A stretch of 64,000 nt of DNA from Bacteroidota bacterium (GCA_026391355.1 JAPLDH010000078.1:6358-70357); one strand, 5' to 3'; shown: positions 13,961 through 35,428, counted from the first letter of the stretch. The notes: a model not told the origin generated them from the sequence alone. Translations and numbers: made by a program.

Positions 13961-16111
13961 TTATTCCGCTTTAATATTTTGGCCTTTCATCGTTAACTGG
14001 ATCCGTTTTCTCTCCATATCTATCTCCGTCACCTCCACCATCACTTTCTGGTTAAGTTTAACCACCTCATTTGGATCCCTTACAAACCTGTCGGCCAACT
14101 GGCTGATGTGAACCAGTCCGTCCTGGTGAACACCGATATCGACAAAAGCTCCGAATTTCGTGATGTTGGTAATGATCCCGGGCAGCTTCATACCAATTTT
14201 CAGGTCGTTCAGGGAATGGATATCTTTGGCAAATTCAAACATTTCGAATTTTTTCCTGGGATCCCGTCCGGGTTTGTCCAGCTCCTGCATGATATCCTGT
14301 AAGGTAGGCAGGCCAATGGTTTCCGTCACAAACTCCTTCGGGTCGATCTTCTTCCGGAGTTCGGGTTGTTCGATCAGTTCAGCAATGGAGCAATTCAACT
14401 TACCTGCCATCTTATTCACTACATGGTAACTTTCAGGATGAACAGCGCTCCTGTCCAGTGGGTTTTCACCGTCACGGATCCTCAGAAATCCTGCCGCCTG
14501 TTCAAATGCCTTGTCCCCGAAACGGGGTATTTTTGATAACTCCTTTCTCGACCTGAAAGCCCCGTGTTCATCCCGGTAGACTACAAGGTTCTTTGCCAGA
14601 ACAGGACCCAGTCCCGAGACATAGGTCAGGAGTTGTTCGCTTGCCGTGTTGACCTCCACCCCTACCGAATTGACAGCACTGACAACAGTATCTTCGAGAC
14701 TCTGTTGCAGGTCATTCTGATTGACATCATGCTGGTATTGTCCGACACCTATCGATTTCGGATCGATCTTCACCAGTTCTGCAAGCGGGTCCATCAACCT
14801 CCTGCCGATGGAAACCGCACCTCTTACCGTTACATCATAATCAGGAAATTCCTTTCTGGCAATCGCTGAAGCTGAATAGACCGATGCCCCGCTCTCATTA
14901 ACCATAATGGCAATGATCTCCTTTTCGAAAGGAATTGCCCTGATCAGCATTTCTGTTTCCCTGCCGCCGGTTCCGTTCCCGATGGCAATTGCCTCAATTT
15001 TATAAGCATTGACAAGACTTTTAATTTTATGAAGGGAATCCTTTACCTCCAGTTGAGGGGGATGGGGATAGATGGTTTCATTGTGCACCAATTTCCCCTG
15101 CTTATCAAGACATACCAGTTTGCACCCTGTACGAAACCCGGGGTCGATGGCGAGAACATTTTTCTGTCCGAGAGGCGGGGCAAGTAAAAGCTGGCGCAGG
15201 TTTTCAACGAAGACCCTTATGGCCTCCTTATCCGCCTTTTCTTTGACCAGTTGCCGCATTTCGGTTTCCATGGAAGGAAAAAGCAGGCGCTTGCAACTGT
15301 CTTTTATCGCCTTCTTCACAAGTTCAGATGAGGCATTATTACCCTTCACAAATATTGTTTCAAGGATGTTCCGGGCTTTTTCTTCATCCACCTCAACAGA
15401 CAACCTGAGCATTAACTCATTTTCGCCACGCATCATTGCGAGGATCCGATGAGAAGGCGATTTTATCAGCAATTCACTAAAGTCAAAATAATTGCGGTAA
15501 TTGGCGCCTTCAGCCTCTTTTCCCTTTGCAACTTTGGAACAAAGAAGTCCTTCACGATGGAAAAGGGAACGGATCCGTTTCCGGGTGTAGATGTGTTCAT
15601 TTACCCATTCGGCAATGATATCACAAGCGCCCTTTATAGCATCTTCTATAGTATTAACACCTTTCTCCAGGTCTACAAAGGATTGTGCTTTTTCTTCCAC
15701 ATCGTCATATTTTTGCGACAGGATGATCTTTGCAAGCCCTTCCAATCCTTTTTCCTTCGCAATGCTGGCGCGGGTCTTACGTTTTGGGCGGTAGGGAAGG
15801 TAGATGTCTTCCAACTCCGCCATCGAAGTCGCCTCCTGAATGGCCCGTTCAAGCTCCCCGGTAAGCTTTTCCTGTTCAATAAGCGACCTGATAATCGCCT
15901 CTCTGCGGGCATCAAGATCCTTCATCTGGTTCAAACGGTCGCGTATCCTCATGATCATCACCTCATCCAGGCTGCCCGTCATCTCTTTACGGTACCGCGC
16001 AATGAAAGGGATCGTGGCCCCTTCTTCCAGCAACTTTATCGTATTCCTTACAAAAGCCGAAGCGATGTTCAACTCAAGGGCAATAGCACCTGAATATTTA
16101 TCTGTCGTCAT
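13961..16111 (-). CDS. tex: Tex-like transcription accessory protein (YqgF/HhH/S1 domains)
   Basis: 716 aa. N-terminal IPFIARYRKE signature. C-terminal S1 domain GMKLPGIITNITKFGAFVDIGVHQDGLVHISQL. Confidence 0.95.
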   Translation of the reverse strand: MTTDKYSGAIALELNIASAFVRNTIKLLEEGATIPFIARYRKEMTGSLDEVMIMRIRDRLNQMKDLDARREAIIRSLIEQEKLTGELERAIQEATSMAELEDIYLPYRPKRKTRASIAKEKGLEGLAKIILSQKYDDVEEKAQSFVDLEKGVNTIEDAIKGACDIIAEWVNEHIYTRKRIRSLFHREGLLCSKVAKGKEAEGANYRNYFDFSELLIKSPSHRILAMMRGENELMLRLSVEVDEEKARNILETIFVKGNNASSELVKKAIKDSCKRLLFPSMETEMRQLVKEKADKEAIRVFVENLRQLLLAPPLGQKNVLAIDPGFRTGCKLVCLDKQGKLVHNETIYPHPPQLEVKDSLHKIKSLVNAYKIEAIAIGNGTGGRETEMLIRAIPFEKEIIAIMVNESGASVYSASAIARKEFPDYDVTVRGAVSIGRRLMDPLAELVKIDPKSIGVGQYQHDVNQNDLQQSLEDTVVSAVNSVGVEVNTASEQLLTYVSGLGPVLAKNLVVYRDEHGAFRSRKELSKIPRFGDKAFEQAAGFLRIRDGENPLDRSAVHPESYHVVNKMAGKLNCSIAELIEQPELRKKIDPKEFVTETIGLPTLQDIMQELDKPGRDPRKKFEMFEFAKDIHSLNDLKIGMKLPGIITNITKFGAFVDIGVHQDGLVHISQLADRFVRDPNEVVKLNQKVMVEVTEIDMERKRIQLTMKGQNIKAE

Positions 16112-16212
16112 TTTACTAAAATAATATTAAAGCGACATTCTGTTATATGGTCAAATACTTTTTAAGTAAAGATTAGTGACTTATGGTCTTATGAAAGGTT
16201 TTTATTGATTAC

Positions 16213-17322
16213 TTATGACAAAGAAAGATTAACTGACTGAAAATATTCCAGACTCCAACCTAATTTATTTAGCTCTGTATGTTCTCTTGCAAACCTGCCA
16301 ATAATGAGAGCAGGGTGTGTATTGAACCTGGTTGCAAAATCAATAATGGATTTTTTGGTAAGAGGTAAATTTTCAACAAGTTCAGCTTCTTGCTCATCTG
16401 TGAGAGTGAATTTAACTGCAAATTCATCTGCTTCATTTTCCTTTATCATTTCTTCTTCTGAATATTCAAGACCTTCAACAAAAATATCCCTTTTACCATG
16501 TTTTACGATATGGCCGGCTTCATGAAAAAAGGTAAACCAAAAAATATCATTCCGGTTGTAAAGGTTCGAGAGTTGTATTAGAGGATTGTCATTTATCCAC
16601 CGGGTGGAGCCATGAAGATTTGTTTTTGGCAAGCATGGTGTATGTACAACTTTTACCCCTGTTGATGAGCAAATTGATTGTAGTGATGAAAAAAAATTAA
16701 CCGGCTGCTTTGCCATAATGCTTTTTATCTCTTGCAGTGCCGACTTAAATCGTTGTAAGTCATATGTGGCAGCGCTTAATTCTTCGGATTGATGTTCGCC
16801 CTGTCTAAGCCAGGCTGAAACAGCATATGGATTCTTACCACTCGATTTGCTCATCCGGTAAGCTGATTCATATACATTTTTATGATAATAGTTGTAATAA
16901 GGCTCCTGGCCAGATACTCCAAAAAAAGAATACAAAGCAGATGCTTTGCTCAGAATATTATCTTCATAAGTTAACCACTTTAATTTTTTCATTGCAGAAA
17001 GTGGAAAATTATCTACCCAGTCTTTTGTATTTAATAGTATTTCAGCTTCTTCTAATTGGGCTAATTCCAATCGATAATTCTTTTCTCTTTCTAACCAAAA
17101 AGCGGCTTCGATACCTAACACTCTTTCTAATTGGATTGCAGTTTCAGGGGTAATAGCAGTTTTACCCTTGATGATTTCATTGATGGTCTTAATAGGTCTT
17201 CCCATTCGCAATGCCAATGAAGGTTGACTTATACCTTTCACTGAAAGTGTTTCAGCTAAAGTATCGCCGGGTGGTGAAATAATTTGCCTGGCAGTTTTAA
17301 TATCTTCTTTGGTTCTATACAT
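16213..17322 (-). CDS. HigA-type XRE HTH antitoxin domain fused to an ImmA/IrrE (M78) zinc metallopeptidase domain
   Basis: N-terminal HTH GISQPSLALRMGRPIKTINEIIKGKTAITPETAIQLERVLG. C-terminal HExxH FFHEAGHIVKH. Confidence 0.8.
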   Translation of the reverse strand: MYRTKEDIKTARQIISPPGDTLAETLSVKGISQPSLALRMGRPIKTINEIIKGKTAITPETAIQLERVLGIEAAFWLEREKNYRLELAQLEEAEILLNTKDWVDNFPLSAMKKLKWLTYEDNILSKASALYSFFGVSGQEPYYNYYHKNVYESAYRMSKSSGKNPYAVSAWLRQGEHQSEELSAATYDLQRFKSALQEIKSIMAKQPVNFFSSLQSICSSTGVKVVHTPCLPKTNLHGSTRWINDNPLIQLSNLYNRNDIFWFTFFHEAGHIVKHGKRDIFVEGLEYSEEEMIKENEADEFAVKFTLTDEQEAELVENLPLTKKSIIDFATRFNTHPALIIGRFAREHTELNKLGWSLEYFQSVNLSLS

Positions 17323-17527: not shown

Positions 17528-17562
17528 CCGGAGTATTTATCTGTTGTCATCTTATTAAAATA
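17528..17562. repeat. Degenerate duplicate of the tex start codon region (direct repeat of 16089-16123)
   Basis: CCGGAGTATTTATCTGTTGTCATCTTATTAAAATA versus CCTGAATATTTATCTGTCGTCATTTTACTAAAATA, about 30 of 35 identical. The copy still encodes MTTDKYSG on the minus strand. Confidence 0.7.
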
Positions 17563-17767: not shown

Positions 17768-18313
17768 TTATGGGCCACACCTTCCTTGATATTTTGCTTC
17801 GTAATAGCTGATATTCCGTATATCTACGCAAAAACTTGTGATAAGAAAATAATCCGGCTTCACCTCTTCCAGAATGATAATATAATTCTTTGCTTTGTAC
17901 CAGAAATACTGACGGACGGATCCATCGTCCTCTGAAAAATGAAAATGAGTTATTCGAGGATCTGAACAGTTTTGTAAAATTGGTTTAATCCAATGTATTC
18001 GATTTGCTCTATTTTCCTTAAACATGCGTTTCTTAGACATTACTTTGGTACGCCCGGAAATCTCCCGGGTTAAAAGATGAACAAATTTCTCATGATAATG
18101 AGAATAAAAATCAGGTAGACCATCTGCAATGTGATTGGAATAAAACTCCTTTTTTACTTTGATATTTTTGTGATCAATCTGGAATGGTTGATCGAAGAAA
18201 TCACGAAGATAGCAGGCATAGATTGAATCAATGATTTCCTTATCAGTTGATTGAATTGGCTCAGTGAAACGTGGTGTGAGTGAACCCAGAATGTCTAAAA
18301 CCCCAATACTCAT
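17768..18313 (-). CDS. Hypothetical 181-aa protein, translationally coupled partner of the DUF3800 gene
   Basis: ATG 18311-18313 overlaps the upstream TGA (ATGA). I recognise no family. Notable segments are HYHEKFVHLL, RANRIHWIKPIL and YFWYKAKNYIIILEEVKPDYFLITSF. Confidence 0.6.
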   Translation of the reverse strand: MSIGVLDILGSLTPRFTEPIQSTDKEIIDSIYACYLRDFFDQPFQIDHKNIKVKKEFYSNHIADGLPDFYSHYHEKFVHLLTREISGRTKVMSKKRMFKENRANRIHWIKPILQNCSDPRITHFHFSEDDGSVRQYFWYKAKNYIIILEEVKPDYFLITSFCVDIRNISYYEAKYQGRCGP

Positions 18314-19026
18314 AGCACCCTCCTTGGTTGATGATCGAAAATATTGAATTTTGATTCCCAAGGGGCTGTACCAAAATCCAGGTCATAACCAGACTTCTGT
18401 TCAAGATATTGGACCAGTTCAATCTTTGTTTTATTTGCACCGTCAGCAAGTTGTAACCCTCTTGCTTTGTACGTAATTGCTCCAATAAAAATATCGGCAA
18501 GCTGAATAAACTGTGAATCAAATGAACGAATGTGTTGAAACCATTTATATGGGCTATTACCATAAAATTTATTCCGGAAAATCTCATCTAGCATTTTAAG
18601 CTTTTCACGGCCTCTTGTATCTTTAATATCCAGAAAAACCTTATAATTATCTGATGTATTATTAAGCCATGGATTTGCTAACAAATAGAAAATCATCTTG
18701 TCATAATAGATGTCATGCCGGCCTTCATTGAATTTCTGATGTTGTAAACGGTTTTTATGTTTTATTAAAAGGCAACGGAACTGTAAAGGCTTATCGAAAA
18801 AATAATCAATTAATTCCTTGTAGAGAGCTCCCTTTGTATTACTAATAGTATTCCACTTTATTTCATGTACAATACCATGATTCCGTTTTATTTGTTTAAT
18901 CTCAGTTTTAATTTTTGGAACTTCCTCTGAGGGGACTTTAATATATCCCACTGCCATGATATTTGATAAATCATGCTCCAAATGGCAGCTCTCATCAATA
19001 TAAAGGTTATAATCAAACATGTTCAA
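18310..19026 (-). CDS. DUF3800-family protein
   Basis: N-terminal YNLYIDESCHLEHD and C-terminal QLADIFIGAITY match the DUF3800 pattern as I remember it. Confidence 0.6.
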   Translation of the reverse strand: MNMFDYNLYIDESCHLEHDLSNIMAVGYIKVPSEEVPKIKTEIKQIKRNHGIVHEIKWNTISNTKGALYKELIDYFFDKPLQFRCLLIKHKNRLQHQKFNEGRHDIYYDKMIFYLLANPWLNNTSDNYKVFLDIKDTRGREKLKMLDEIFRNKFYGNSPYKWFQHIRSFDSQFIQLADIFIGAITYKARGLQLADGANKTKIELVQYLEQKSGYDLDFGTAPWESKFNIFDHQPRRVL

Positions 19027-19279: not shown

Positions 19280-21955
19280 TTATTTAAAAACATTAGGTGA
19301 AACTACACCTTTAAAACTGCTTGTCTTTGTTACCTGGTCATGTGGGATTAAAACGTGTTTCCAGGGTTTACCTCCATTTTCGGATGTGTATTCTGTTGCA
19401 TAATTGCAATACTTTAATGCTGCTTGTGCCTTTGCCTGAACATCCGGGTCGTTAATTTCATTGACTGCTTTTGTTTCTATAAGGTAGATGCAGTCGGCTG
19501 ATTCAGAAACAAAATCAGGTTCGTAAAGTTTAGTGTTATGTTGCCAATAAATGCGAAATTGGTTAGGCGCTGGTCTTAACCATTTCAATACCTCTTTATC
19601 GTTCTCTAGAATATAGGAAAGGGTCTGTTCTGTCCGGCTATCAAACTTGTACTCAAAATGACAACTTTTTTCAAAGCCTCTAAAAATAAATTTCGGAACC
19701 TGTATAGCAGGGAAATTGCCATCCCTGTAGTCTTTACGAACTACATTAATTAAAGCCGTAAAATTCCATTTTTCAATACTGGTAAAGGGTTTTACATTTG
19801 GTTTTATATAATCAGGTTCATGCAAGCGAAAATGTTGCATCATTTGTGAATAAACTCTATTGGCGATCAATCGGCGCCACTGAAAAACAATTGTTTTTAT
19901 AGATTCCCCCTCTTGTATATTATTTTGCAATCTATCAACTGCTTGTTTTGCAAGCTTGTGCAACAAGTCTGCATTGGCGTCATAATCAATTTCTGAAAAA
20001 TTTATGAGTTCTGATATAAGCAACTTAACGGGGCTGCCATAATTCACACCTGCTTTCACTTCAATTACATCAATACTTTTATCCTTCAGACCAATTCTTA
20101 TAATTTCTTCGTTTAGTTGCTCATAGGAAAAGTCCTTGCTATCCAAATCAAAATCATCAAAACTTGCAGTTACCATGCCTAGAACTAAATCCATTCTTGG
20201 AATCTGAATGATGTTCTTTTTAAAATCAGCAACCAACTTTTCATAAATTTCATCTGCTTCGGCAGCTATTTGAGTAGCGAAAAGATTAATTTGCCCGGTG
20301 CTTAGTTCTTTTTGCACCGCTTCCATTACTTGTTTTTTAACTTCTGGTTTAATTAAATCATCTACCTTTTTTACCTGTGAATTGGTATTGAAAAATGGAA
20401 TAACATTTACCAGTATCCTTTTTGCATCGACAATATTTTGTTGTTTCTGTTTTTGTGTGGAATCCTGAATTTTATTTACTGCCTCCTGTTCTTTTTGTAA
20501 ATTTTCTGTAATTGTGTTTTGCACCGTTACTACTTCGACTCTTTCGTTTAATTGAGCGGCATCAATTTCGACAAACTTGAGTTTATTTAAGATTGAGTTG
20601 GGGTCTTGCGCTGCTGCAATTACTCTATTGAAGTTATCATGAGCAACTATCGTGAGTTTGTCAACTTTATCATTTCCGGTTCTTTCACCACCAAAAGGCA
20701 AACGCAAACCCCTACCAATGGTTTGTTCAACCAATACTGATGCGTTGGCTGCACGGAGCGGGACAATTGTATAAAGGTTCGTAACATCCCATCCCTCCTT
20801 GAGCATGTTCACATGAATTACAATTTCAATTTCGTTGTCATCAAGCTCCAATGAAAGAAATTGTTGTTCTATCAATTCTTCGTTCCGGGTGGTGCTGTCA
20901 ATCTGTAACACTTTATCAGCGAATGTGCCTTCATAAAAATCTACTGAAGAAATTAAATCATACACCGCTTTTGCATGCGTAGTTTCACGGCAAACAACTA
21001 AAATAAAGGGTTTTACTAATTTTTTACCGGTGTTCAGAGCGAATAGTTTTAACTCTTGTTTTGTATCTTCATGGATACTAACCGCATCCTCCAGTTTTAT
21101 TTTTTCAATTTCATCCTCGCTTCTGCCTTGGGGATTAAAATCTTTCCGGGTGGCGATGGTTGGGTTTTTTACATATAGGCCGTCCGTAAGCGCCTGAGCC
21201 AAACTATATTCATACACGACGTTTCTGAATTGATTGCCTTTTTCATCTATTGGCGTTGCCGTCAATTCAATACCTAAAACCGGTTTCAGCTCATTGATAG
21301 CATCCTTACTCTTATCAGCATGGTAACGGTGGGCTTCATCCATTAAAATGACTAAGTCATTGAGGTTGCTGAGATATTCCCAATAGCTTTGACCCAAATA
21401 TTCCGAAAGTCGTTTTATTCTCGGAGCTAAATTTCTGCCCCCCTGTGTTGTCGGCTTTGTTTCTCTTGCAAATTTAGAAACATTGAAAATATTTATTCTG
21501 ATTTCGGTTTCGCTGAAAAGCGAACTGACTTGATTGTAATTATCACCTGTAATAATAACCGGTTTGTTATGAACAAAATCTGCAATACCGTTGAACACAT
21601 ATTTTGGATTGCTGCTATTCCCAAAATCTTCAATCAGTTTATTGTAAATTGTGAGGTTGGGTGCTAAAACAAAAAAATTTCTGATCCCCTTTTCCAGATA
21701 CAAATATGCAATACAGGCGCCCATCAATCTTGTTTTTCCGACTCCGGTTGCAATACTGTAACAAATGGATACAAACTCTCTTTCAAAATCGGTACAGGTT
21801 GGATAAAGTGCTTGTACTTTTCCCAATTCTGATTTCAGGTCAACTTCTTTTTGTAATTCCAATTCACCTGAAAGGAAAGTTAGAATATCAAAAGCCTCTT
21901 GCAAGGGTTTGCGAAGTGATAATCGTTGCTTAATATTTTCTGCAATCTGGTTCAT
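19280..21955 (-). CDS. res: Type III restriction enzyme Res-like subunit (SF2 helicase plus C-terminal PD-ExK nuclease)
   Basis: Walker A ATGVGKTRLMG, DEAH box LMDEAHRYH, TATP, motif VI QTIGRGLRLP. C-terminal YEPDFV...IYLIETKA is a PD..ExK motif. Directly downstream of a Mod-type MTase. Confidence 0.85.
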   Translation of the reverse strand: MNQIAENIKQRLSLRKPLQEAFDILTFLSGELELQKEVDLKSELGKVQALYPTCTDFEREFVSICYSIATGVGKTRLMGACIAYLYLEKGIRNFFVLAPNLTIYNKLIEDFGNSSNPKYVFNGIADFVHNKPVIITGDNYNQVSSLFSETEIRINIFNVSKFARETKPTTQGGRNLAPRIKRLSEYLGQSYWEYLSNLNDLVILMDEAHRYHADKSKDAINELKPVLGIELTATPIDEKGNQFRNVVYEYSLAQALTDGLYVKNPTIATRKDFNPQGRSEDEIEKIKLEDAVSIHEDTKQELKLFALNTGKKLVKPFILVVCRETTHAKAVYDLISSVDFYEGTFADKVLQIDSTTRNEELIEQQFLSLELDDNEIEIVIHVNMLKEGWDVTNLYTIVPLRAANASVLVEQTIGRGLRLPFGGERTGNDKVDKLTIVAHDNFNRVIAAAQDPNSILNKLKFVEIDAAQLNERVEVVTVQNTITENLQKEQEAVNKIQDSTQKQKQQNIVDAKRILVNVIPFFNTNSQVKKVDDLIKPEVKKQVMEAVQKELSTGQINLFATQIAAEADEIYEKLVADFKKNIIQIPRMDLVLGMVTASFDDFDLDSKDFSYEQLNEEIIRIGLKDKSIDVIEVKAGVNYGSPVKLLISELINFSEIDYDANADLLHKLAKQAVDRLQNNIQEGESIKTIVFQWRRLIANRVYSQMMQHFRLHEPDYIKPNVKPFTSIEKWNFTALINVVRKDYRDGNFPAIQVPKFIFRGFEKSCHFEYKFDSRTEQTLSYILENDKEVLKWLRPAPNQFRIYWQHNTKLYEPDFVSESADCIYLIETKAVNEINDPDVQAKAQAALKYCNYATEYTSENGGKPWKHVLIPHDQVTKTSSFKGVVSPNVFK

Positions 21956-21975
21956 ATTATTTCCTGATTACTTGA

Positions 21976-23715
21976 TTAAAAAAGTGAGGGTTGGCTTTCA
22001 TCTTCTTTCTTTTCGTTGGCGGAGCTGACTGATTTATTGGTTTTAGATTTCATTTTTTTGCCAGTCGATTCATCTATGCTGATTTCATCTTCATTGGTCG
22101 AAGAATTATCTGGTTCGACATGAGGAAGATTTATAATATTGAAAGAATAATCATCTTTGCCAAACTCACATCTGCCATAAAGCATTTGAGGAATTTTTTT
22201 GATAGTGATGTTGCCAGGTCTTGATTTACATTCTGTTTTAAAACCTTTGCAGCAAATCAATAAACTTTCGTTGGGTTGCAATTCTTCTGCAAGCCTGTCA
22301 AACATTTCTACAGTGATAAATTGTGTAGTGGTGAAAATGAAATCTTTTTCGCTGCTTTTGCCTTGTTTCCAATAAATGCTTTCATGTGGATCATAGCGGA
22401 ATCCCTCTTGTTTTGCCATTGCTGCAGCCAACATATTGGCATTGTAAGTTGGGTTGATAATATCGTTGCCATATTTATCTTTTTGAATTAAACTGGGTGC
22501 AAGAGTGTAGAATTTAAAACCACCACCACCTTTCCATTCCAAAAGGTTACTTATCCCACCCTGATCTGAACCATCTATTACTTTTGCTAACCGAGGAACA
22601 CAAAGTGAGATGGCATGTGCCCCTAATTCAATCCCAATCCATCGGAGATTCATTTTATGAGCGACCGCTGCTGTAGTCCCTGAACCTAAAAAAGAATCTA
22701 GTACCCAATCACCTTCATTTGTAACTGAGTTAATAAGCGTATAAATTAATTTTTCTGGCTTAGGATAATCAAAAGCTTCACTATTTCCGAAAAGCAATTC
22801 ACTTTCTTTAGTAGCATCTTCATAAGTTGACATTTCATAGTGAGCAACACTCAATAAATTTTTCATTTTCTTTGGTTCACCGCCCTCTTTAATGTGATTT
22901 GGCCTAAAAGGAATCTGACTGATTAATATCTTCTCTTTGCATTTCATTATTTCATCCAGTTTACTTTGGGAATAGCGCCATTCTCCTTCTAGTCTGAATG
23001 CATTAACATTAAAACCTGCTTTTATCTCAACCCTATCAAGTAAACGAGTGATGATGTTACCACCAGACATGTCACAAGCCTCTATAATTTGGTCTTTTAG
23101 ATTGAAATATACTGAGCCAGCTGAAAATTTTAAAATACGAATACCATTACCAGCATTATTTATCGGATATTTTTTCCCTTTAGTTGTCTCACCATAGATG
23201 AAGGGTGGAGAGTACTTTGCATTTTTACCATAGCTTAAAATGTATTCTGTTATCGACCCCATATTTGATAGGAAGGAGGGTTTTTTCTTTTTTTCCCAAA
23301 TCAAAGAACCTAAAAAATTACTACGACCAAATATTTCATCAGATAATATTTTTAAATAATGTACTTCATCGTCATCAATACTTATAAATAAAATACCATC
23401 ATTTGAAAGTAAAGACTTGATGATTTCTAGACGAGGCTTCATTAAATTCAACCATAAAGAATGTTGCAGTCCGTCATCGTAATGTTCAAATGCATTGCCT
23501 GTGTTATAAGGAGGATCAATATAGATACATTTAATCTTATTAGAAAAGTTTTGCTCCAATGCTTTTAAAGCAAGTAAATTGTCACCGTGTATTAGTAAAT
23601 TTTCAGAATTATAACTGCCAAAAGAGTATTTTGGATCCTCGATTAAAATTCTAGGTTCTAATTTCTGATCATTACCTTTACCAATCCAAGTAAGTTCAAG
23701 TTTTTGATTTTTCAT
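21976..23715 (-). CDS. mod: Beta-class N6-adenine/N4-cytosine DNA methyltransferase (type III Mod-like)
   Basis: Motif IV IYIDPPYNTGN precedes motif I VLDSFLGSGTTAAVA. A long variable region lies between them, the presumed target-recognition domain. Confidence 0.85.
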   Translation of the reverse strand: MKNQKLELTWIGKGNDQKLEPRILIEDPKYSFGSYNSENLLIHGDNLLALKALEQNFSNKIKCIYIDPPYNTGNAFEHYDDGLQHSLWLNLMKPRLEIIKSLLSNDGILFISIDDDEVHYLKILSDEIFGRSNFLGSLIWEKKKKPSFLSNMGSITEYILSYGKNAKYSPPFIYGETTKGKKYPINNAGNGIRILKFSAGSVYFNLKDQIIEACDMSGGNIITRLLDRVEIKAGFNVNAFRLEGEWRYSQSKLDEIMKCKEKILISQIPFRPNHIKEGGEPKKMKNLLSVAHYEMSTYEDATKESELLFGNSEAFDYPKPEKLIYTLINSVTNEGDWVLDSFLGSGTTAAVAHKMNLRWIGIELGAHAISLCVPRLAKVIDGSDQGGISNLLEWKGGGGFKFYTLAPSLIQKDKYGNDIINPTYNANMLAAAMAKQEGFRYDPHESIYWKQGKSSEKDFIFTTTQFITVEMFDRLAEELQPNESLLICCKGFKTECKSRPGNITIKKIPQMLYGRCEFGKDDYSFNIINLPHVEPDNSSTNEDEISIDESTGKKMKSKTNKSVSSANEKKEDESQPSLF

Positions 23716-23722
23716 TAAGTTG

Positions 23723-24790
23723 TTATTTAATTAGCCAATGTTTTGCATCGGCCCTTGTTTGATTAGTGCAATTTTTTATTTGTTTTTTGTAAAGGCTGCC
23801 TCGAAGAAAAGAAACAATATACTTATTAGTACCAAGTTTTACAAACTTTAATAGCAACGGCCTATCGAAACTTGTTATTTCTGAGATTGTAAAGCGATAA
23901 GTATAGTTACCAAAACGGCAGATGACAGAAGGCCGAAACTCATTGTAGGGGAATTTTAATTGAATTGTTTTATGAATTTGGTCTGGCTTTACATCAAAGT
24001 AATTTTCTAATACAGATGATGGTATTTGAACTTGTGTGCCATTTGCTCCAGTTTCAGTTAATACTTCCAAAAATAAAATAGAACCAACTTTTGGCTTGAT
24101 GATTCTTTTGCTTTGTGCCTTCCCTTTAATATGCGAAACGGTTGATATTGCTGGAATATTTAATTCAGGGAACAGTTTTTTTAATTCATTACTTTTTCTT
24201 CTTTGTGTTTTCTCAATCTTTTCTATACGAATGCGTAATTTTTCAAGACCTTTTAACAGTGCTTTGTCGATGCTTCTTAAATTGTTCTTTTTAAATGGAT
24301 TTTGCGGATTACTATAAGTTTCCCAGACATCTTCAAACTCTTTTAACAAAGAATTGTCTTTTTTTCGGTCTAATTCTATCTTAATTGAACATTCGCTATT
24401 TATTGAGATACCACCAAGAGATAAATTTGATGAACCAATAAATACAGTCAACGAATCTTTTTTGTCAAAAAAATAAATCTTAGGATGAAAAGTGTAGTTA
24501 TCGTTGGATGCATTAAATACTTTAAAAGAGCCTTTTGGCATCCGTTCATTTAAATATCTTAACACATCAATTTCACTGGTTGTGCTACCTAAACCAATAA
24601 TCATTTTCAATTGAGAATATTTAGACTCATAAAAACTCTCCAACTCTTCATAGATTGTATCCAATCCACGCCATGATAAATATGCGACCAGAGCCCTAAA
24701 GCAAGTGGTGCTCTTGTCTATTAATTCTAATTTTAACTCGTCCTTTAATGGATTATTAAAAGGGGTTTGGTTTATTACTTGTGTTTTCAT
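23723..24790 (-). CDS. Single-HKD phospholipase D-family nuclease with a C-terminal beta-rich putative DNA-binding domain (BfiI/NgoFVII-like architecture)
   Basis: One HxKx4D..GSxN motif (FHPKIYFFD...FIGSSNLS). The C-terminal ~130 aa carry no catalytic motif. Confidence 0.75.
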   Translation of the reverse strand: MKTQVINQTPFNNPLKDELKLELIDKSTTCFRALVAYLSWRGLDTIYEELESFYESKYSQLKMIIGLGSTTSEIDVLRYLNERMPKGSFKVFNASNDNYTFHPKIYFFDKKDSLTVFIGSSNLSLGGISINSECSIKIELDRKKDNSLLKEFEDVWETYSNPQNPFKKNNLRSIDKALLKGLEKLRIRIEKIEKTQRRKSNELKKLFPELNIPAISTVSHIKGKAQSKRIIKPKVGSILFLEVLTETGANGTQVQIPSSVLENYFDVKPDQIHKTIQLKFPYNEFRPSVICRFGNYTYRFTISEITSFDRPLLLKFVKLGTNKYIVSFLRGSLYKKQIKNCTNQTRADAKHWLIK

Positions 24791-24822
24791 GAGAAAATTG
24801 ATTTTTGTATATCCTGTCCAAA

Positions 24823-27735
24823 TTATTCTACTTTCCAGCGAATTGTGAATAATTCTTTCTCAGTTGTATTTTGCTTCAATCGTTGTTCGATTTCATCCAA
24901 TAGATTGTCTTTCCGTTTTTCAATATCATCTTCATTCTGATATTGATTGTATCGCTTTTCCGCTAATTTTTTCTCAAGATCCTTAATGATGCGATGCTCT
25001 TTTACTTTCTGTTCAAGGTTCAACAGTTTTCTTGCTTCTGTTTTCCGGGTCTTTATTTCTTTGTCCAGATCCTTTATTTCAAACTTAATACTGTTCCTTA
25101 CATCTTCACTCCACTTTTCAAGTTTATCGACTTCTTCATCAAAAAAAGCATGGTTTCGGTTACGGTTTTCTTCAATAATACCTATTTGCTGCGCATGATA
25201 GTTTTCTTCCATAAGATTCTTGACTTCATTCGGTACAATAGATTCATAATCAACTATATTTGCCTCCAAAGAAAATAGGCGTTGGCACTGTTCGGGAAGC
25301 AGAAAATTTCCGTCATCATCAACGGCAGCAAATAAAATATGGTCTTCCATTTCAAAACTTGAAATCGAGATTTGTTTTACCTGGAGCCAGCCTTGTTTAC
25401 CTTTCAGGACTTCAAGTATCGAGATTTTTCTTGAACTACTGGTATAATCAAAAATCAATTCCTGTAAAGGTACTTCCTGAGTTTTACATTTTGCAATCAC
25501 TTTTTGTGCTAACGGATGCCCAACACGATAAAGGTTTTCATTGGAACCCAATTCGGTAACTTCATATTTTTCTCCAATATTTTTCTTGCCAACTCTATAA
25601 GGTCCTCTATTTATGGGTTCACCCGAGAAGGGATTTCGATTTAGGTAGAAACTGTTTTCTGAATCATTAAAAGTGGCAAAGGACTGTAAGTAAAATTTAG
25701 TGATTTGCCACAACCAATTTTCAAACTTGTTCAGATAATCACTGCTTTGCTGCAAATTAATTTTAAGTTTCTCATGAACTTCTTCATCAAAATTCTCCAG
25801 AAGTTTTTTCCTCGTTATATCGATACCTTGTTCAATTTCCGGTTCCATTTCCTTCTGCAGCAAATCAAATGCTTGTTGTATGGCTTCGGTGGTTCTGCAG
25901 GTTTGGTAAATATTAATAATCCGCTTTTCAAAATCAACTCCGCTTTCAATTGATCCCAAAACTTCATCGCTCGCACCGAAAACACCACTAAACAACTGAA
26001 ATTTTTCATCAAGCAATTGATAAACTCTTTGATCTGCAGCATTGGTATTATTCAGAAAATTCACCACTACTACATCAAACTTTTGCCCATATCGGTGGCA
26101 TCTTCCAATACGTTGTTCAATGCGTTGGGGATTCCAGGGCAAATCATAATTGACCACCAGTGAACAGAATTGCAAATTGATACCTTCTGCCGCCGCTTCA
26201 GTTGCGATCATTATAGTTGCTGTATCATGAAAATAATCAACCAGCGCCGCTCTTTTATCGGCTGTTCTTGAACCTGTTATTCTGTCAGTTCCTTTATGTC
26301 TTTTCAGCCATGCCTGATAAATCTGATTGCTCTTCGGGTCATTATTACTACCATTAAACAAAACTATTTCATCCTTGTACCCTCCAGCTTCTAAATTGTT
26401 TTTAAGATACTCCTGTGTCCGGGTGCTCTCAGTAAAAATAATTGCTTTCCGGTTTGCTTTAAGTTCAGTCAATTTCTGAAAACCCCTTGCTAACGCAGTA
26501 AATAAAACCTCTCCTTTAGAATTTACAGTGATTGATTTTGCTAATTTCTTAAACTCATTAAGTGAATCAACTTCTAGTCTTATTTCGGAAATTTCATCTT
26601 TGGTGTAAACACGTTTCTCTTTTATTATTTCTTCTTCTTCATCAATCCACTCGTCAAGTTGATCTTCATAAATCTCATAATTTTCCGAGAACACTTCAAT
26701 CACCATTTGAGGCGATTCTAATTGTTCTGTTATGGTTTTTTCCAATTTGTCGGCCAAACCTTGCAGAGTGCCCGATATAGCATAAGTAGAAGATGCCAAC
26801 AGCTTACGAAGAACTAAAGTCATAAGTGTACGCTGACCAGGTGGCAACGCATATAAGGTTGGTCTTTGTAGATATTCAGAAACTAAGTTATAAAGCTGTT
26901 GTTCATCTTCACGAGGTGTAAACTCCTGGAGAATGCAAGCCCGGTTTGTATAATTAATATACTCAAGGACCTGCCTTCTTAATGTTCGCTTACAAACCGG
27001 TTCTAACCGTCTTTTTAATTCTTCAAAGTTTTTTTCTTCCGAAAGCCGTGTGTATTGTGTTTTGAAACTTTTTAAATCGCCGAAGGCATATTCGTCAATA
27101 ATGCTGACTAAACCGTATAACTCTAAAAGGGAATTTTGCAAAGGTGTAGCTGTAAGAAGAATTTTTGGCGCATGTGCAACAGCCTCTTTTATTGCTCTCG
27201 CAATTTTATTATTGGGTTTGTAAATATTCCTTAAACGATGCGCTTCATCAATAACAACTAAGTCCCAATCAACTTTGCTTACATAAACCGCTTTACTTTT
27301 TACAAAGTGATAGGAACAAATAATAACCTTATCGGTTTGCTGAAAGGGATTAAAGTTTGCTTTTTGCAATTCTTCATTAAAAGATTTTGTTTCAAGGATG
27401 ATCGAGGGAAGAAAGAATTTATCTGCAATTTCCTGATTCCATTGTTTACGGAGATTGGCGGGAGGAATGATTAGAATTTTTCGTTTACGTTCAGCCCACT
27501 TTTGAGAAATGACAATTCCGGCTTCAATGGTTTTTCCTAAGCCTACTTCATCAGCCAAAACGGCACCTTTTGAAAGCGGTGATTGAAAAGCAAAAAGTGC
27601 GGCATCAATCTGATGGGGGTTTAAGTCAACCTGTGCATCAGAAAGTGAAGCTGTAAATTTTTGTAAGCTATTTGAAGAATATCGCTTCGTTATTTCATAT
27701 GCAAAGTATTTTGCATGGTATGGAGTGATGTTCAT
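24823..27735 (-). CDS. SNF2-family ATPase/translocase with a ~370-aa C-terminal extension ending in a charged coiled coil
   Basis: DEVGLGKTIEAG, VIDEAHRLRN, LTATPLQN, GINLQ..NYDLPWNPQRIEQRIGRCHRYGQ. The tail is rich in E/K heptads (EEVDKLEKWSEDVRNSIKFEIKDLDKEIKTRK...). Confidence 0.9.
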   Translation of the reverse strand: MNITPYHAKYFAYEITKRYSSNSLQKFTASLSDAQVDLNPHQIDAALFAFQSPLSKGAVLADEVGLGKTIEAGIVISQKWAERKRKILIIPPANLRKQWNQEIADKFFLPSIILETKSFNEELQKANFNPFQQTDKVIICSYHFVKSKAVYVSKVDWDLVVIDEAHRLRNIYKPNNKIARAIKEAVAHAPKILLTATPLQNSLLELYGLVSIIDEYAFGDLKSFKTQYTRLSEEKNFEELKRRLEPVCKRTLRRQVLEYINYTNRACILQEFTPREDEQQLYNLVSEYLQRPTLYALPPGQRTLMTLVLRKLLASSTYAISGTLQGLADKLEKTITEQLESPQMVIEVFSENYEIYEDQLDEWIDEEEEIIKEKRVYTKDEISEIRLEVDSLNEFKKLAKSITVNSKGEVLFTALARGFQKLTELKANRKAIIFTESTRTQEYLKNNLEAGGYKDEIVLFNGSNNDPKSNQIYQAWLKRHKGTDRITGSRTADKRAALVDYFHDTATIMIATEAAAEGINLQFCSLVVNYDLPWNPQRIEQRIGRCHRYGQKFDVVVVNFLNNTNAADQRVYQLLDEKFQLFSGVFGASDEVLGSIESGVDFEKRIINIYQTCRTTEAIQQAFDLLQKEMEPEIEQGIDITRKKLLENFDEEVHEKLKINLQQSSDYLNKFENWLWQITKFYLQSFATFNDSENSFYLNRNPFSGEPINRGPYRVGKKNIGEKYEVTELGSNENLYRVGHPLAQKVIAKCKTQEVPLQELIFDYTSSSRKISILEVLKGKQGWLQVKQISISSFEMEDHILFAAVDDDGNFLLPEQCQRLFSLEANIVDYESIVPNEVKNLMEENYHAQQIGIIEENRNRNHAFFDEEVDKLEKWSEDVRNSIKFEIKDLDKEIKTRKTEARKLLNLEQKVKEHRIIKDLEKKLAEKRYNQYQNEDDIEKRKDNLLDEIEQRLKQNTTEKELFTIRWKVE

Positions 27736-28069
27736 TTTTTAAAATGGTCTTTCCAAAATATCACCTTAAGACGTTTTATGGGATCAAGAATATAGATACT
27801 GGCTGCTGTAAAATGTACCATGCTTTTTTTTATTGCAAGTTACATAAAACATTCAAATTGGATATATCCTGTGAGAATTTTCATTTTACAAAAAACAGTA
27901 TGTTATGGGTTTGTAGGTTTCTACAAAATTCGACCATTAAAATGAAGGAAATTTAGAAAAGGTGTAATAAATCATAGGGATTGCACTCTTTTGACTTTGC
28001 CCTTGGGTTGGCTTCTGTGTATGCACGAAGAAGCAGATGCGAGCAATTTGGGGCGGCATTATTTTCCGC

Positions 28070-28789
28070 TTACCATCCCGATGCAAGGAGATCAATGATA
28101 TGGATGGTCTTTAATGGCAGTTTGTGCTTATCTATATAGCCCTGCTGGTGCATCATACAGGAAGCATCGGTGGTTACAATATATTCGGCCCCGGTTGCCA
28201 GGGCATGCTTGACCTTTTGTTCGGCCATCGCAGTGGAGATGGGTTCAAACTTAACTGAAAAGGTGCCCCCAAACCCGCAACATACTTCAGTATCCTTCAT
28301 CTCTCTCAATTCCAACCCCTTCACATTCGCCAGCAACTTCCTTGGTTCATCTTTGATCCCATATTCCCTTAAAGCTGCACAGGAATCATGATAAGTGACC
28401 ACATGATTAAAAGTCGCACCGACGTCCACTACTCCAATAACATTTACCAGAAAATCGGTAAATTCAAGCATATTCTTCTTCAACTGCTTGTATTCATAGT
28501 GCTGGGCTGTATTGTGAAACAGCCAGCTGTAATAATTCCTGACCATTCCTGAACAGGAAGCAGAAGGACTGATAACGGGACGGTCATTCGGAAAATCATG
28601 CAGAAATTTCTTCCCCATCTCCTTCGCCTCATCCCAGAAACCACTGTTAAATGCCATCTGGCCGCAGCAGGTCTGGTTACCGTTATAATGAACATCGACA
28701 CCCAGCTTTTCCAGGATCTTTACCATGTTCATTCCGGTTTGCGGATATACCTGATCTATAAAACAAGGGATGAAAATGTCAACGAGCAT
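28070..28789 (-). CDS. Cysteine-rich (CCG-domain) Fe-S oxidoreductase subunit, LutA/YkgE-like
   Basis: MLVDIFIPCFIDQ...CCGQMAFNSG and a second CCGFGG motif, which is the LutA/GlpC-type pattern. Confidence 0.75.
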   Translation of the reverse strand: MLVDIFIPCFIDQVYPQTGMNMVKILEKLGVDVHYNGNQTCCGQMAFNSGFWDEAKEMGKKFLHDFPNDRPVISPSASCSGMVRNYYSWLFHNTAQHYEYKQLKKNMLEFTDFLVNVIGVVDVGATFNHVVTYHDSCAALREYGIKDEPRKLLANVKGLELREMKDTEVCCGFGGTFSVKFEPISTAMAEQKVKHALATGAEYIVTTDASCMMHQQGYIDKHKLPLKTIHIIDLLASGW

Positions 28790-33473: not shown

Positions 33474-33878
33474 TCAGAATTCAATGGTGCGTTCTCCATC
33501 ACCTTCCATTTTCACATGGACCGTATGCTCCGGAAGAAGGGATTCCATCATCTCAGGCCACTCTATAAAACAATACGCCCCTGAAAAAAGGTAATCCTCA
33601 TACCCGATATCATATACTTCATCTATTTTCCGGATACGGTAAAAATCAAAATGGAAAAGGAATTCTCCTCCGGGTATTCTATATTCATTGATGATGGCAA
33701 ACGAGGGACTCTGAACGATATCAGATGCACCCAATTGAGCACAGATGACTTTGATAAAGGTAGTCTTCCCGGCACCCATCATCCCGTAAAATACAAACAC
33801 ACGGGCATCGGGATAGGCTGCCAGCAATTCTTTTGCTGCCGGGATAAGGTCTGATTCGTTCTTACAGGTAAAGATCAT
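33474..33878 (-). CDS. tsaE: tRNA t6A biosynthesis ATPase TsaE
   Basis: 134 aa. P-loop GMMGAGKTTF, SPSFAIINEY, HFDFYR. Confidence 0.85.
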   Translation of the reverse strand: MIFTCKNESDLIPAAKELLAAYPDARVFVFYGMMGAGKTTFIKVICAQLGASDIVQSPSFAIINEYRIPGGEFLFHFDFYRIRKIDEVYDIGYEDYLFSGAYCFIEWPEMMESLLPEHTVHVKMEGDGERTIEF

Positions 33879-35428
33879 TTTCCCTTCAACACTACAAATG
33901 GTATCATCACCTCCTCCATTGATACACCTCCATGCTGGAATGTATTCCGGTAATAGTTAACATAGTAATTATAGTTGTTCGGATAGGCAAAGAAATCGTC
34001 ATTCTTGCAAAAGATATAGTTAGAACTTACATTTATCCTTGGAAGAAAGGCATCTGCCGGGTTCTTGATCTCAAATACCTCGTTATGTTCGTATTTCAGC
34101 GCTTTCCCCGTCTTGTAACGAAGGTTTGTGTTGGTGTTCTTGTCACCAAGTACCTTTACCGGGTTATTTACGCGGATAGAACCGTGATCGGTTGTAATTA
34201 TCACATTTACATCCTTTTCTGCAAGGAAACGGAATATATCTAATAGCGGTGAATGCAGAAACCAGGAAACTGTAAGTGAACGATATGCTTTTTCATCATC
34301 CGCCAGTTCACGAATAATTTCCATCTCTGTGCGGGCATGTGATAACATATCTACAAAATTGTAAACTATAATGTTGAGCTTATTCACCATCAGGTTAGGC
34401 AATAATTCAACCAGCTTTTTCCCATACGTTTGATTGAGAACCTTATAGTAGGAATGCTTGATATCCTTACCATAACGGTGAAGAAGCTCAGTCAGAAACT
34501 CTGCTTCATAATTATTTTTTGTACCCTCTTCATCATCGTCCACCCATAATTTTGGATACTTTTTCTCGATCTCAGTCGGAAGAAGCCCTGCAAACAGAGA
34601 ATTACGGGCATATTGGGTGGTAGTAGGAAGGATACCAAAATAGATATCGTCGCGCTCAACCCTGTAATACTCTTCCAGGATGGGTTGAAGCATTTTCCAC
34701 TGGTCATACCGGAGATTATCTATGAGGATCACAAACAAAGGTCTGTTATCATTGAAAAACGGAAAGACCTTCTCCCTTAATAGTGTATGAGACAATACAG
34801 GTTTTTCCTGGGTTTTGCCATTGAGCCATGTAAGGTAATTACGCTCAATAAACTTGGCAAAAACCTCATTTGCTTCATGTTTTTGCATCCCCAACACCTG
34901 GTTCATCCCCTCGTCATCCGATTTCTCAAGTTTAAGCTCCCAGTAAACCAGCTTCTTGTAAACCTCCGTCCATTCTTCGTAATTCAGTTTATTGCTGATC
35001 TCCATTCCCAGACTTCTGAATTGCTGCTGGTATTGGTGTGTGGTTTTCTCATTGATCAGCTTTTTATTTTCAAGCGTTTTCTTCAGGCTTAGCAAGATCT
35101 GGTTCGGATTTACCGGTTTGATCAGGTAATCAGAAATATTTGATCCTATTGCATCTTCCATGATGGTCTCTTCCTCGCTTTTTGTGATCATTACAACAGG
35201 TAGATTCGGAAAATTACCCTTGATCTGCAGCAAAGTCTCAATTCCTGATAACCCCGGCATCTGTTCATCCAGAAAAACTATATCAAAATCTTTTTTCCTG
35301 AGTATTTCAATCGCATCATGGCCATTATTGGTAGTGTCAACATCATAACCTTTCTCCCTTAAAAAAATCATGTGTGGTTTCAACAGGTCTATCTCATCAT
35401 CCACCCATAAAATCGCTGTTTTATCCAT
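33875..35428 (-). CDS. porX: PorX-type response regulator (receiver plus PglZ/alkaline-phosphatase-like domain) of the T9SS regulatory pair
   Basis: ILWVDDEIDLLKPHMIFLREKGY..FLDEQMPGLSG..VVMITKSEEE..DYLIKPVNPNQILLSLKK closely follows P. gingivalis PorX as I recall it. The 517-aa length also matches. Confidence 0.8.
   Translation of the reverse strand: MDKTAILWVDDEIDLLKPHMIFLREKGYDVDTTNNGHDAIEILRKKDFDIVFLDEQMPGLSGIETLLQIKGNFPNLPVVMITKSEEETIMEDAIGSNISDYLIKPVNPNQILLSLKKTLENKKLINEKTTHQYQQQFRSLGMEISNKLNYEEWTEVYKKLVYWELKLEKSDDEGMNQVLGMQKHEANEVFAKFIERNYLTWLNGKTQEKPVLSHTLLREKVFPFFNDNRPLFVILIDNLRYDQWKMLQPILEEYYRVERDDIYFGILPTTTQYARNSLFAGLLPTEIEKKYPKLWVDDDEEGTKNNYEAEFLTELLHRYGKDIKHSYYKVLNQTYGKKLVELLPNLMVNKLNIIVYNFVDMLSHARTEMEIIRELADDEKAYRSLTVSWFLHSPLLDIFRFLAEKDVNVIITTDHGSIRVNNPVKVLGDKNTNTNLRYKTGKALKYEHNEVFEIKNPADAFLPRINVSSNYIFCKNDDFFAYPNNYNYYVNYYRNTFQHGGVSMEEVMIPFVVLKGK

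Follow-up and report, generated by a model that had tools for sequence, protein, structure and literature searches.

Type III restriction-modification (R-M) systems such as EcoP15I and EcoP1I (Mod2Res) are classically defined by two genes, mod lying directly upstream of res, and combine a beta-class methyltransferase, Mod, whose target-recognition domain (TRD) sits between the DPPY and FxGxG motifs, with a Res subunit in which superfamily 2 (SF2) helicase motifs are joined to a PD-(D/E)xK nuclease at the C-terminus. Cleavage by such systems is ATP-dependent and calls for two unmethylated sites in inverse orientation. Their route to restriction, as reviewed in the introduction of PMC5737866, involves ATP-triggered sliding and collision-activated cleavage. 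A different architecture is seen in the CglI/NgoAVII systems (R2H2 plus M), where the gene for an R subunit of ~350-365 amino acids (aa), made of an N-terminal phospholipase D (PLD) domain with a single HKD motif and a C-terminal B3-like domain, is found next to genes for a methylase and an SF2 ATPase; according to PMC5737866, PMC5861437, PMC4267653 and PMC4267654, R2H2 needs a translocating SF2 ATPase and has a cognate methylase. DISARM, in turn, is defined in 10.1101/2021.12.28.474362 by DrmA, the DUF1998 protein DrmB, and DrmC. The subject of this work is an operon on the minus strand (positions 19280-27735) of a 64,000-nucleotide (nt) stretch of DNA from Bacteroidota bacterium (GCA_026391355.1 JAPLDH010000078.1:6358-70357), here called the window and used for all positions given, which encodes an SNF2-family ATPase, a PLD nuclease, a Mod and a Res. 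With an even chance, in our estimate, of being right, we read this operon as an SNF2-linked, type III-like R-M system with a second, CglI/NgoAVII-like restriction arm that would share the mark laid down by Mod.

The operon shares with the type III systems the order of mod and res and the domains and motifs of the two subunits. It departs from the classical systems in that an upstream SNF2 gene is obligatory in its clade and a cargo slot exists between SNF2 and Mod, and in that the window copy adds a second nuclease of a different fold. With CglI/NgoAVII it has in common the size and predicted two-domain layout of the R subunit, as well as a gene for it that adjoins those of a methylase and an SF2 ATPase. 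In CglI/NgoAVII, however, the motor is a DEAD-Z1 H subunit whose NTP hydrolysis is needed for cleavage, while here it is an SNF2-family protein, in which no Z1 domain was found by profile and PDB-sequence searches, and the separate C5 methylase of those systems contrasts with the type III Mod and complete Res of the window. BfiI, a metal-independent type IIS enzyme, provides the best whole-protein fold match to the PLD nuclease and is of similar length (358 aa vs 355 aa), but works without an ATPase and is only ~11% identical in sequence. SauUSI and the PLD-helicase or HKD+SNF2 fusions (PADLOC PLD_Helicase and C3a139; NCBIfam phospholipD_antiphage) also join a PLD nuclease to an SF2/SNF2 motor, the PLD domain of SauUSI being the best PDB sequence match to the window's PLD family and an HKD-SNF2 fusion being part of a sister architecture described below (type B). 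In the window, however, nuclease and motor are on separate genes, and SauUSI is a modification-dependent (type IV) enzyme without a methylase.

Class 1 DISARM (DrmD, DrmMI, DrmA, DrmB and DrmC) resembles the operon in combining an SNF2 protein, here with DrmD as its closest profile, with a PLD-family gene and an adenine methylase, and differs from it in the class of the methylase, in the architecture of the PLD protein and in the presence, here, of a type III Res with a nuclease of its own. Profile searches of the four proteins, of the other genes of the surrounding island and of the other large open reading frames (ORFs) of the window found neither DrmA nor DrmB/DUF1998, and the 891-aa Res gave no match to DUF1998/DrmB with Pfam, PADLOC and NCBIfam profiles. 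DISARM was rejected as the identity of the locus because its defining DrmA and DrmB are absent. A preliminary description of this DNA had already called the locus something other than canonical DISARM, and the missing DrmA and DrmB/DUF1998, together with a methylase that is a beta-class type III Mod, bear this out.

An SNF2-Mod-Res triad with an optional nuclease gene

The SNF2 gene (24823-27735, minus strand, 970 aa) is followed on the same strand by those for the PLD nuclease (23723-24790, 355 aa), Mod (21976-23715, 579 aa) and Res (19280-21955, 891 aa), with intergenic gaps of 32, 7 and 20 nt. The preliminary description had listed four minus-strand ORFs and gaps that match our ORF listing exactly, had quoted motifs that were all located in the four proteins, and had taken the genes for a single operon, a claim that is strengthened by these short gaps, by a cassette homology that spans exactly the four genes, and by a gene order that recurs elsewhere. 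Nucleotide homology to two Bacteroidota contigs from metagenome-assembled genomes (MAGs; L001 and L002), at 78-82% identity, in fact covers window positions 27737-19289, from the start of SNF2 to the stop of Res; it breaks off 2-4 nt before SNF2 begins, and the flanks of these contigs are unrelated to those of the window. Whether the order SNF2-PLD-Mod-Res recurs had been raised in the preliminary description as a point to check, and it does so on unrelated metagenome contigs whose PLD proteins are 31-55% identical to that of the window (L008, L009/L010, L011, L012, L016, L025, L094, L095 and the P0006 contig). Some of these loci carry extra genes between SNF2 and PLD, namely a DUF87 ATPase, an SMC-like ATPase, a 583-aa protein, or a trio formed by a 110-aa protein, a helix-turn-helix (HTH)-M78 protein and a 224-aa protein. 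The four genes are one horizontally mobile operon. In L094, where the four-gene order is like that of the window and the PLD protein is 53% identical, the immediate context of the cassette differs; an SH3 + NlpC/P60 gene lies a few kb from the cassette both there (4325-5107) and in the window (12325-13134).

The same preliminary description had proposed a four-part hybrid. The four genes do form one unit, but the conserved framework is the triad SNF2...Mod-Res, in which PLD is optional and represents one occupant of a variable slot. SNF2 homologues 45-70% identical to that of the window, from metagenomes and genomes, are followed by a beta-class methylase and by a Res in every contig long enough to show them, and the order of the triad on its strand, with an SNF2 protein that has the C-terminal module described below placed upstream of Mod and Res, is also that of the window. 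When plasmids were searched with tblastn, full-length SNF2 homologues (39-54% identity) were found on 45 of them, in Salmonella, Klebsiella, E. coli, Citrobacter, Rhizobium, Cupriavidus, a planctomycete, Deinococcus, Aeromonas, Roseomonas, Paracoccus and Sphingopyxis. All the plasmid contexts that were inspected (6/6) agreed in their layout: SNF2, as a rule preceded by a small HTH gene, is followed by a methyltransferase and then by a Res-like helicase, and optional genes may stand before the methyltransferase and a single one after it; in contrast to these plasmid versions, the operon of the window has no small HTH gene upstream. Every plasmid with a full-length homologue of the window's Res also carries SNF2 (23/23), which indicates that this clade of Res is obligatorily linked to SNF2 and agrees with the earlier view that the locus is more than a plain type III R-M system. 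The triad spans several phyla and many conjugative plasmids and occurs widely without any PLD, and the SNF2 protein additionally pairs with more divergent Mod/Res pairs. A complete HTH-SNF2-methyltransferase-Res cassette of the Klebsiella type was found in 2 of 5426 complete E. coli genomes, the cassette being broadly distributed across taxa and uncommon in E. coli.

HTH-SNF2-methylase-Res cassettes were seen on conjugative plasmids of Salmonella (15 records), of Klebsiella, E. coli, Citrobacter and Raoultella, of Rhizobium and of Cupriavidus, including the Salmonella plasmid pR18.1595_113k (L085), the E. coli plasmid pEC316_2 (L087), and L086 and L090, where only generic product names are given for them; in pEC316_2, ssb/psiB/psiA lie a few kb upstream of the cassette, with two insertion sequence (IS) elements in between. 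Our search of the literature returned no paper that names the SNF2-Mod-Res triad or its PLD variant, absence there being no proof. MANTIS/Gao_RL, ARMADA, Hma/Hna and MhgA were considered as the possible described system and were judged to be different systems.

The SNF2 protein displays the motifs DEVGLGKT62, DEAHRLRN163, TATPLQN195 and QRIGRCHRYGQ541, and matches the Pfam families SNF2-rel_dom (7.9e-36) and Helicase_C (4.8e-20). Its best PADLOC model is DrmD (PDLC02619) with 696 bits, against 114 bits for the generic helicase-core match to a DrmA model, and NCBIfam DISARM_DrmD_b scores 699 bits, which is under the 950-bit cut-off of that model and covers residues 29-676 only. Going by these profiles, we treat the protein as a probable sister of DrmD and not as a member. 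The helicase core (residues 29-676, at 25708-27651, minus strand), delimited by the extent of the DrmD model matches, has RapA and the Snf2/ISWI ATPases as its closest solved relatives among PDB sequences. The remainder of the protein (residues 677-970, at 24826-25707, minus strand) is modelled by AlphaFold2 as a beta-rich domain within a long antiparallel coiled coil, with a mean predicted local distance difference test (pLDDT) score of 87 over residues 620-970. This C-terminal module has no Pfam match and, with Foldseek, no PDB fold at E <= 0.001, and the region comprising residues 620-970 is conserved in 431 database proteins. Our conjecture is that it would be the obvious candidate for docking to Mod/Res or to PLD.

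In Mod, DPPYN67 comes before FLGSGTT342, the order that identifies beta-class type III enzymes, and the protein matches Pfam N6_N4_Mtase (8.5e-45) and PADLOC MTase_III (515 bits), in agreement with what the preliminary description had recognised as a type III Mod. Comparison across loci places its TRD at residues ~165-320 (22756-23223, minus strand). Res has the SF2 ATPase and the PD-(D/E)xK nuclease expected of a type III subunit, with the motifs GVGKT71, MDEAH205, TATP232, QTIGRGLR411, EPDF812 and IETK826, and matches Pfam ResIII (5.1e-21) and PADLOC REase_III (PDLC03648, 540 bits). In its nuclease motif, EPDF812...IETK826 (PD...ExK; 19469-19522, minus strand), the P-D and E-T-K columns are kept in 12 of 13 aligned homologues. 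Because of this conservation, and because all the helicase motifs are present, Res looks catalytically competent.

The interval between SNF2 and Mod, where PLD is located in the window, is empty in some of the other loci and elsewhere contains IS256 + Abi; AIPR + HTH + VapC; a hypothetical protein + DUF87 ATPase; SMC-like fragments; HTH-M78, M78 and DUF4411; HigB-like/HTH-M78/Bro-N/AbiJ; YhcG + KwaA/KwaB (Kiwa); DarT-DarG; or a GmrSD fragment. In two loci, L082 (8321-19056) and L091 (8587-19416), the frame of the triad occupies the same chromosomal site, between the AFOR/aldolase and PFOR genes, and holds different cargo, M78/DUF4411 in one and HigB-like/M78/Bro-N/AbiJ in the other, so that the slot behaves like an embedded-gene site. 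Such sites are known in type I R-M and BREX loci. In both L082 and L091, which are long-read assemblies, SNF2 appears as two pieces, which may reflect a sequencing frameshift rather than a pseudogene.

The PLD protein as partner or passenger

The PLD protein has a single HPKIYFFD102 motif followed by GSSN119 and weak matches to the Pfam families PLDc_2 and RE_NgoFVII. An alignment of 25 sequences of its family, in which H102, K104, G119, S120 and N122 are invariant, was the basis of an AlphaFold2 model (pLDDT 83) whose best full-length match in the PDB, according to Foldseek, is BfiI (2c1l, E 3.6e-13); the model also matches the PLD domain of SauUSI (7clg, E 3.6e-10) and, over its full length, R.NgoAVII (4rct, E 2.1e-9). 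Motifs, profile and fold define a catalytic domain with the single HxK...GSxN signature at residues 1-165 (24296-24790, minus strand), while the model and its fold match point to a beta-barrel-like, B3-like C-terminal domain at residues 235-355 (23726-24088, minus strand), modelled with seven to eight strands and two short helices. Over this C-terminal domain alone, the model matches the BfiI recognition domain with DNA (3zi5, E 1.8e-4, template modelling score (TM) 0.53, rank 44). When the family profile was searched against PDB sequences, SauUSI (1.9e-8), R.NgoAVII (3.4e-5) and, weakly, BfiI (0.03) were found, the similarity to R.NgoAVII being limited to the PLD domain. Mean pairwise identity within the family falls from 51% in the C-terminal domain to 46% in the catalytic domain and 25% in the linker, and the C-terminal domain, its best-conserved part, is kept in both of the architectures described below.

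At the level of predicted fold, this protein is therefore a single-HKD nuclease joined to a B3-like pseudobarrel, as in BfiI and in R subunits of the CglI/NgoAVII type. In Nuc and BfiI, as established earlier, a single-HKD active site is assembled by dimerisation, and PMC5737866 says so again for CglI; the single motif found here suggests that the active site would form in the same way. The preliminary description had named DrmC as the PLD component of DISARM; by its predicted fold the protein here is BfiI/R.NgoAVII-like, with an extra B3-like domain, more than DrmC-like. PADLOC models for DrmC score only 16-21 bits, and there are weak matches to DpdK and ZacB as well. In its strict sense the PLD subfamily is rare: clustering at 90% identity leaves ~35 clusters, 69 representatives reach E <= 1e-30, and a scan of the genome collection yielded only five loci.

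Every context of this strict subfamily, in ~20 independent loci, includes both an SNF2 ATPase and a methylase, and two architectures can be distinguished. Type A, to which the window belongs, reads SNF2, optional cargo, PLD, Mod and Res. Type B consists of an HKD-SNF2 fusion (1064-1167 aa), a type IIG-like Eco57I/TaqI_C methylase (1009-1169 aa) and then a PLD-B3 nuclease, and was found in Omnitrophota and other MAGs with no Res seen (L003-L007, L013, L015, L017 and L019-L023). The C-terminal half of the type B methylase, which contains the TRD, is its best-conserved part (62-72% identity, vs 24-38% for the N-terminus), and no Pfam match to a nuclease domain was obtained in the N-terminus. In one type B locus, L006, the system is followed by two proteins of 326 and 482 aa and then by AbiJ, PDDEXK_4 and DarT-Macro genes. 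Separation of SNF2 and PLD from Mod and Res, which the preliminary description had named as an argument that would undo its hybrid, is thus seen in part, because the PLD family is also found with an HKD-fused SNF2 and a type IIG-like methylase.

Across all 11 type A loci, the spacing between PLD stop and Mod start ranges from -49 to +7 nt, and extra cargo is always placed between SNF2 and PLD, never between PLD and Mod. The presence of PLD, moreover, follows one type of Mod TRD. All nine PLD-bearing loci share TRDs of 155-156 aa that are 60-97% identical, the corresponding Mod cores being 59-94% identical to each other. The TRDs of the four PLD-less SNF2-Mod-Res loci (4/4), in contrast, are only 16-23% identical to that of the PLD group and mostly unrelated among themselves (8-47%), with Mod cores that are 51-67% identical to those of the PLD-bearing group. 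The case of L025 is instructive in this respect, as its Mod core has diverged from those of the other PLD-bearing loci to the same extent as the PLD-less Mods, and it nonetheless retains the PLD-type TRD. We acknowledge that this correlation was obtained from 13 loci, with ~5-6 independent PLD-bearing lineages, using raw identities that ignore phylogeny. Taken together, the SNF2 and methylase contexts, the adjacency of PLD to Mod, the TRD correlation and the conserved C-terminal domain suggest that PLD may be a nuclease of fixed DNA specificity, viable only beside a methylase of matching, frozen specificity. If so, PLD-bearing operons, unlike their PLD-less relatives, would be unable to swap the TRD of Mod.

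A working model can be outlined on this basis. Mod would methylate one asymmetric target and so mark the host DNA, and Mod-Res would restrict unmethylated DNA in the type III way, with ATP switching Res to a sliding state and its PD-ExK nuclease cutting on collision with a second complex. The HKD protein would dimerise to form a single active site, its B3-like domains would bind the same Mod motif when unmethylated, and cleavage would follow when the SNF2 translocase supplied ATP-driven movement, by analogy with R2H2 of CglI. In triads that lack PLD, the SNF2 protein would need another role with Mod-Res, candidates being active translocation, the removal of DNA-bound proteins, or control of restriction. 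That one methylase covers two nucleases, as the preliminary description had it, gains comparative support from the position of PLD beside Mod and from the TRD correlation, while the sharing of the mark, like the reading of the Mod site by PLD and the driving of PLD by SNF2, is something we infer. More tentatively still, and as a possibility that we would not call probable, one Mod might license two unrelated arms, a sliding PD-ExK Res and an SNF2-powered HKD/B3 nuclease of fixed specificity, in an unnamed, phylum-spanning family whose SNF2/Mod junction docks defence modules.

Several observations weigh against the idea of a second arm that shares the Mod mark. The triad persists without PLD, and driving PLD is therefore not the primary role of SNF2; the helicase and the methylase of type B belong to different families, so that any mechanism shared by the two architectures would have to be loose. 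The B3-like assignment comes from a predicted structure with a domain-level match that is moderate by the values given above (E 1.8e-4, TM 0.53), the strong conservation of the C-terminal domain would be just as compatible with binding to a constant protein partner or to DNA without sequence specificity, and the TRD correlation comes from a small sample of 13 loci whose lineages are not independent. The slot between SNF2 and Mod, in addition, also houses clearly autonomous defence genes such as Kiwa, DarTG and Abi, and for this reason PLD could be a passenger too. It would then be a stand-alone effector lodged in an integration hotspot, with no tie to Mod, Res or SNF2, as the many unrelated and self-sufficient modules found in the slot elsewhere, the different cargo of L082 and L091 at one chromosomal site, and the triads devoid of PLD could be taken to indicate. 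We nevertheless hold this to be unlikely, as an autonomous passenger would not be expected to appear with an SNF2 ATPase and a methylase in all of the ~20 contexts of its subfamily and in two architectures, to adjoin the methylase always, with frames that overlap or nearly so, and to follow one TRD type; besides, a sequence-targeted nuclease with no protecting methylase would be toxic to the host. Alternatively, PLD might be an integral accessory that does not read sequence, its C-terminal domain docking to a constant partner (the SNF2 core or Mod/Res) or to DNA non-specifically, so that a second, non-specific degradation of DNA would follow recognition by Mod-Res, in the manner proposed for DrmC. 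A C-terminal domain that is more conserved than the catalytic one in both architectures would fit such a role, as would the weak PADLOC matches to DrmC, DpdK and ZacB and the fact that DrmC-like PLD nucleases accompany SNF2 helicases in DISARM (10.1101/2021.12.28.474362). This explanation, however, leaves unaccounted for the constant TRD of PLD loci as opposed to the swapped TRDs of PLD-less ones, has to cope with partners that differ between types A and B, and sits uneasily with a fold that matches both R.NgoAVII and the DNA-recognition domain of BfiI, and we regard it as distinctly unlikely.

Two further explanations were considered. The locus might be a reduced or atypical class 1 DISARM, formed by DrmD, DrmC, a methylase and a helicase, with Res in the place of DrmA/DrmB, and it is true that DrmD supplies the top PADLOC and NCBIfam models for SNF2 and that a PLD gene with weak DrmC matches and a methylase are at hand. 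Such an origin is nonetheless highly improbable, given that neither DrmA nor DrmB/DUF1998 was found in the operon or in the rest of the window, that the DrmD_b score of 699 bits falls short of the 950-bit cut-off and the C-terminus of SNF2 differs, that PLD is BfiI-like with a B3-like domain and reaches 21 bits at best against DrmC, that the methylase is a beta-class type III Mod and not DrmMI, and that Res is a genuine REase_III with an intact PD-ExK motif. Defence genes, on the other hand, are known to cluster in islands, and PADLOC lists HKD+SNF2 candidates and PLD-helicase fusions separately, which might lead one to see in the four genes a plain type III Mod-Res beside a distinct two-gene system made of SNF2 and PLD. 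To this we give almost no credence, as SNF2, Mod and Res occur together in 23/23 plasmids with this Res clade, the boundaries of the cassette are conserved and its gaps measure 7-32 nt, and PLD, lying between SNF2 and Mod, is coupled to Mod rather than to SNF2. An SNF2-linked type III-like system with a second arm that may share the Mod mark is hence the reading that we carry forward.

Genomic surroundings and significance

The operon lies within a low-GC island of ~16.2-28.0 kb (GC content 0.31-0.37, vs 0.41-0.45 outside) that is delimited by tex (13961-16111) and by a gene for a CCG-domain protein (28070-28789), and whose gene content is of the defence type only. No tRNA genes were found in the 64-kb window, no integrase among the genes neighbouring the island, and no long terminal repeats at the island. 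The intergenic region upstream of SNF2 (27736-28069, minus strand; a spacer of 334 nt separating the SNF2 start from the CCG-domain stop) is the presumed promoter region of the operon; a scan for sigma-70 consensus promoters and terminators, which does not model Bacteroidota promoters, gave counts no higher than the shuffled expectation.

Directly downstream of Res, a DUF3800 gene (18310-19026, minus strand) matches PADLOC PDC-M04A with 274 bits, and an overlapping gene for a 197-aa protein (17768-18361, minus strand) matches PDC-M04B with 195 bits. By these profile matches, the pair (17768-19026) appears to be a full copy of a two-gene defence system that PADLOC lists as a candidate, and it is not kept beside the related cassettes of L001 and L002. 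Further downstream, an HTH + Peptidase_M78 (ImmA/IrrE-like) gene (16213-17322, minus strand; PADLOC PD-Lambda-2_B, 104 bits) is flanked by the two copies of a 35-nt direct repeat, with 86% identity between them, at 16089-16123 and 17528-17562. The repeat duplicates the region of the tex start codon, and its second copy, read by eye, apparently re-encodes the first codons of Tex; the gene and its flanking repeats have the appearance of a scar left by insertion at the tex 5' end. Outside the island, a 517-aa protein (33875-35428, minus strand) shows a weak match to the PglZ domain (67 bits), and, judging by its size and its apparent Bacteroidota host, it may more likely be a PorX-type regulator than a BREX component.

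In spite of the customary treatment of type III R-M as a two-gene affair, the clade described here always comes with SNF2, also where IncF-type plasmids of Salmonella, Klebsiella and E. coli carry it, and the triad is present on clinically relevant plasmids while going unrecognised as a unit. If our reading is true, annotation tools under-describe a common barrier to the transfer of plasmids and phages. The slot between SNF2 and Mod represents another case of defence genes embedded in R-M operons and is useful for discovery by guilt-by-embedding. The PLD variant would be a natural experiment in which two nucleases depend on one methylase, and it predicts that the B3-like domain reads the Mod motif and limits the swapping of TRDs. 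The triad, finally, would offer a model for the roles that SNF2 proteins of the DrmD/BrxH type play in methylation-based defence, as in DISARM and BREX.

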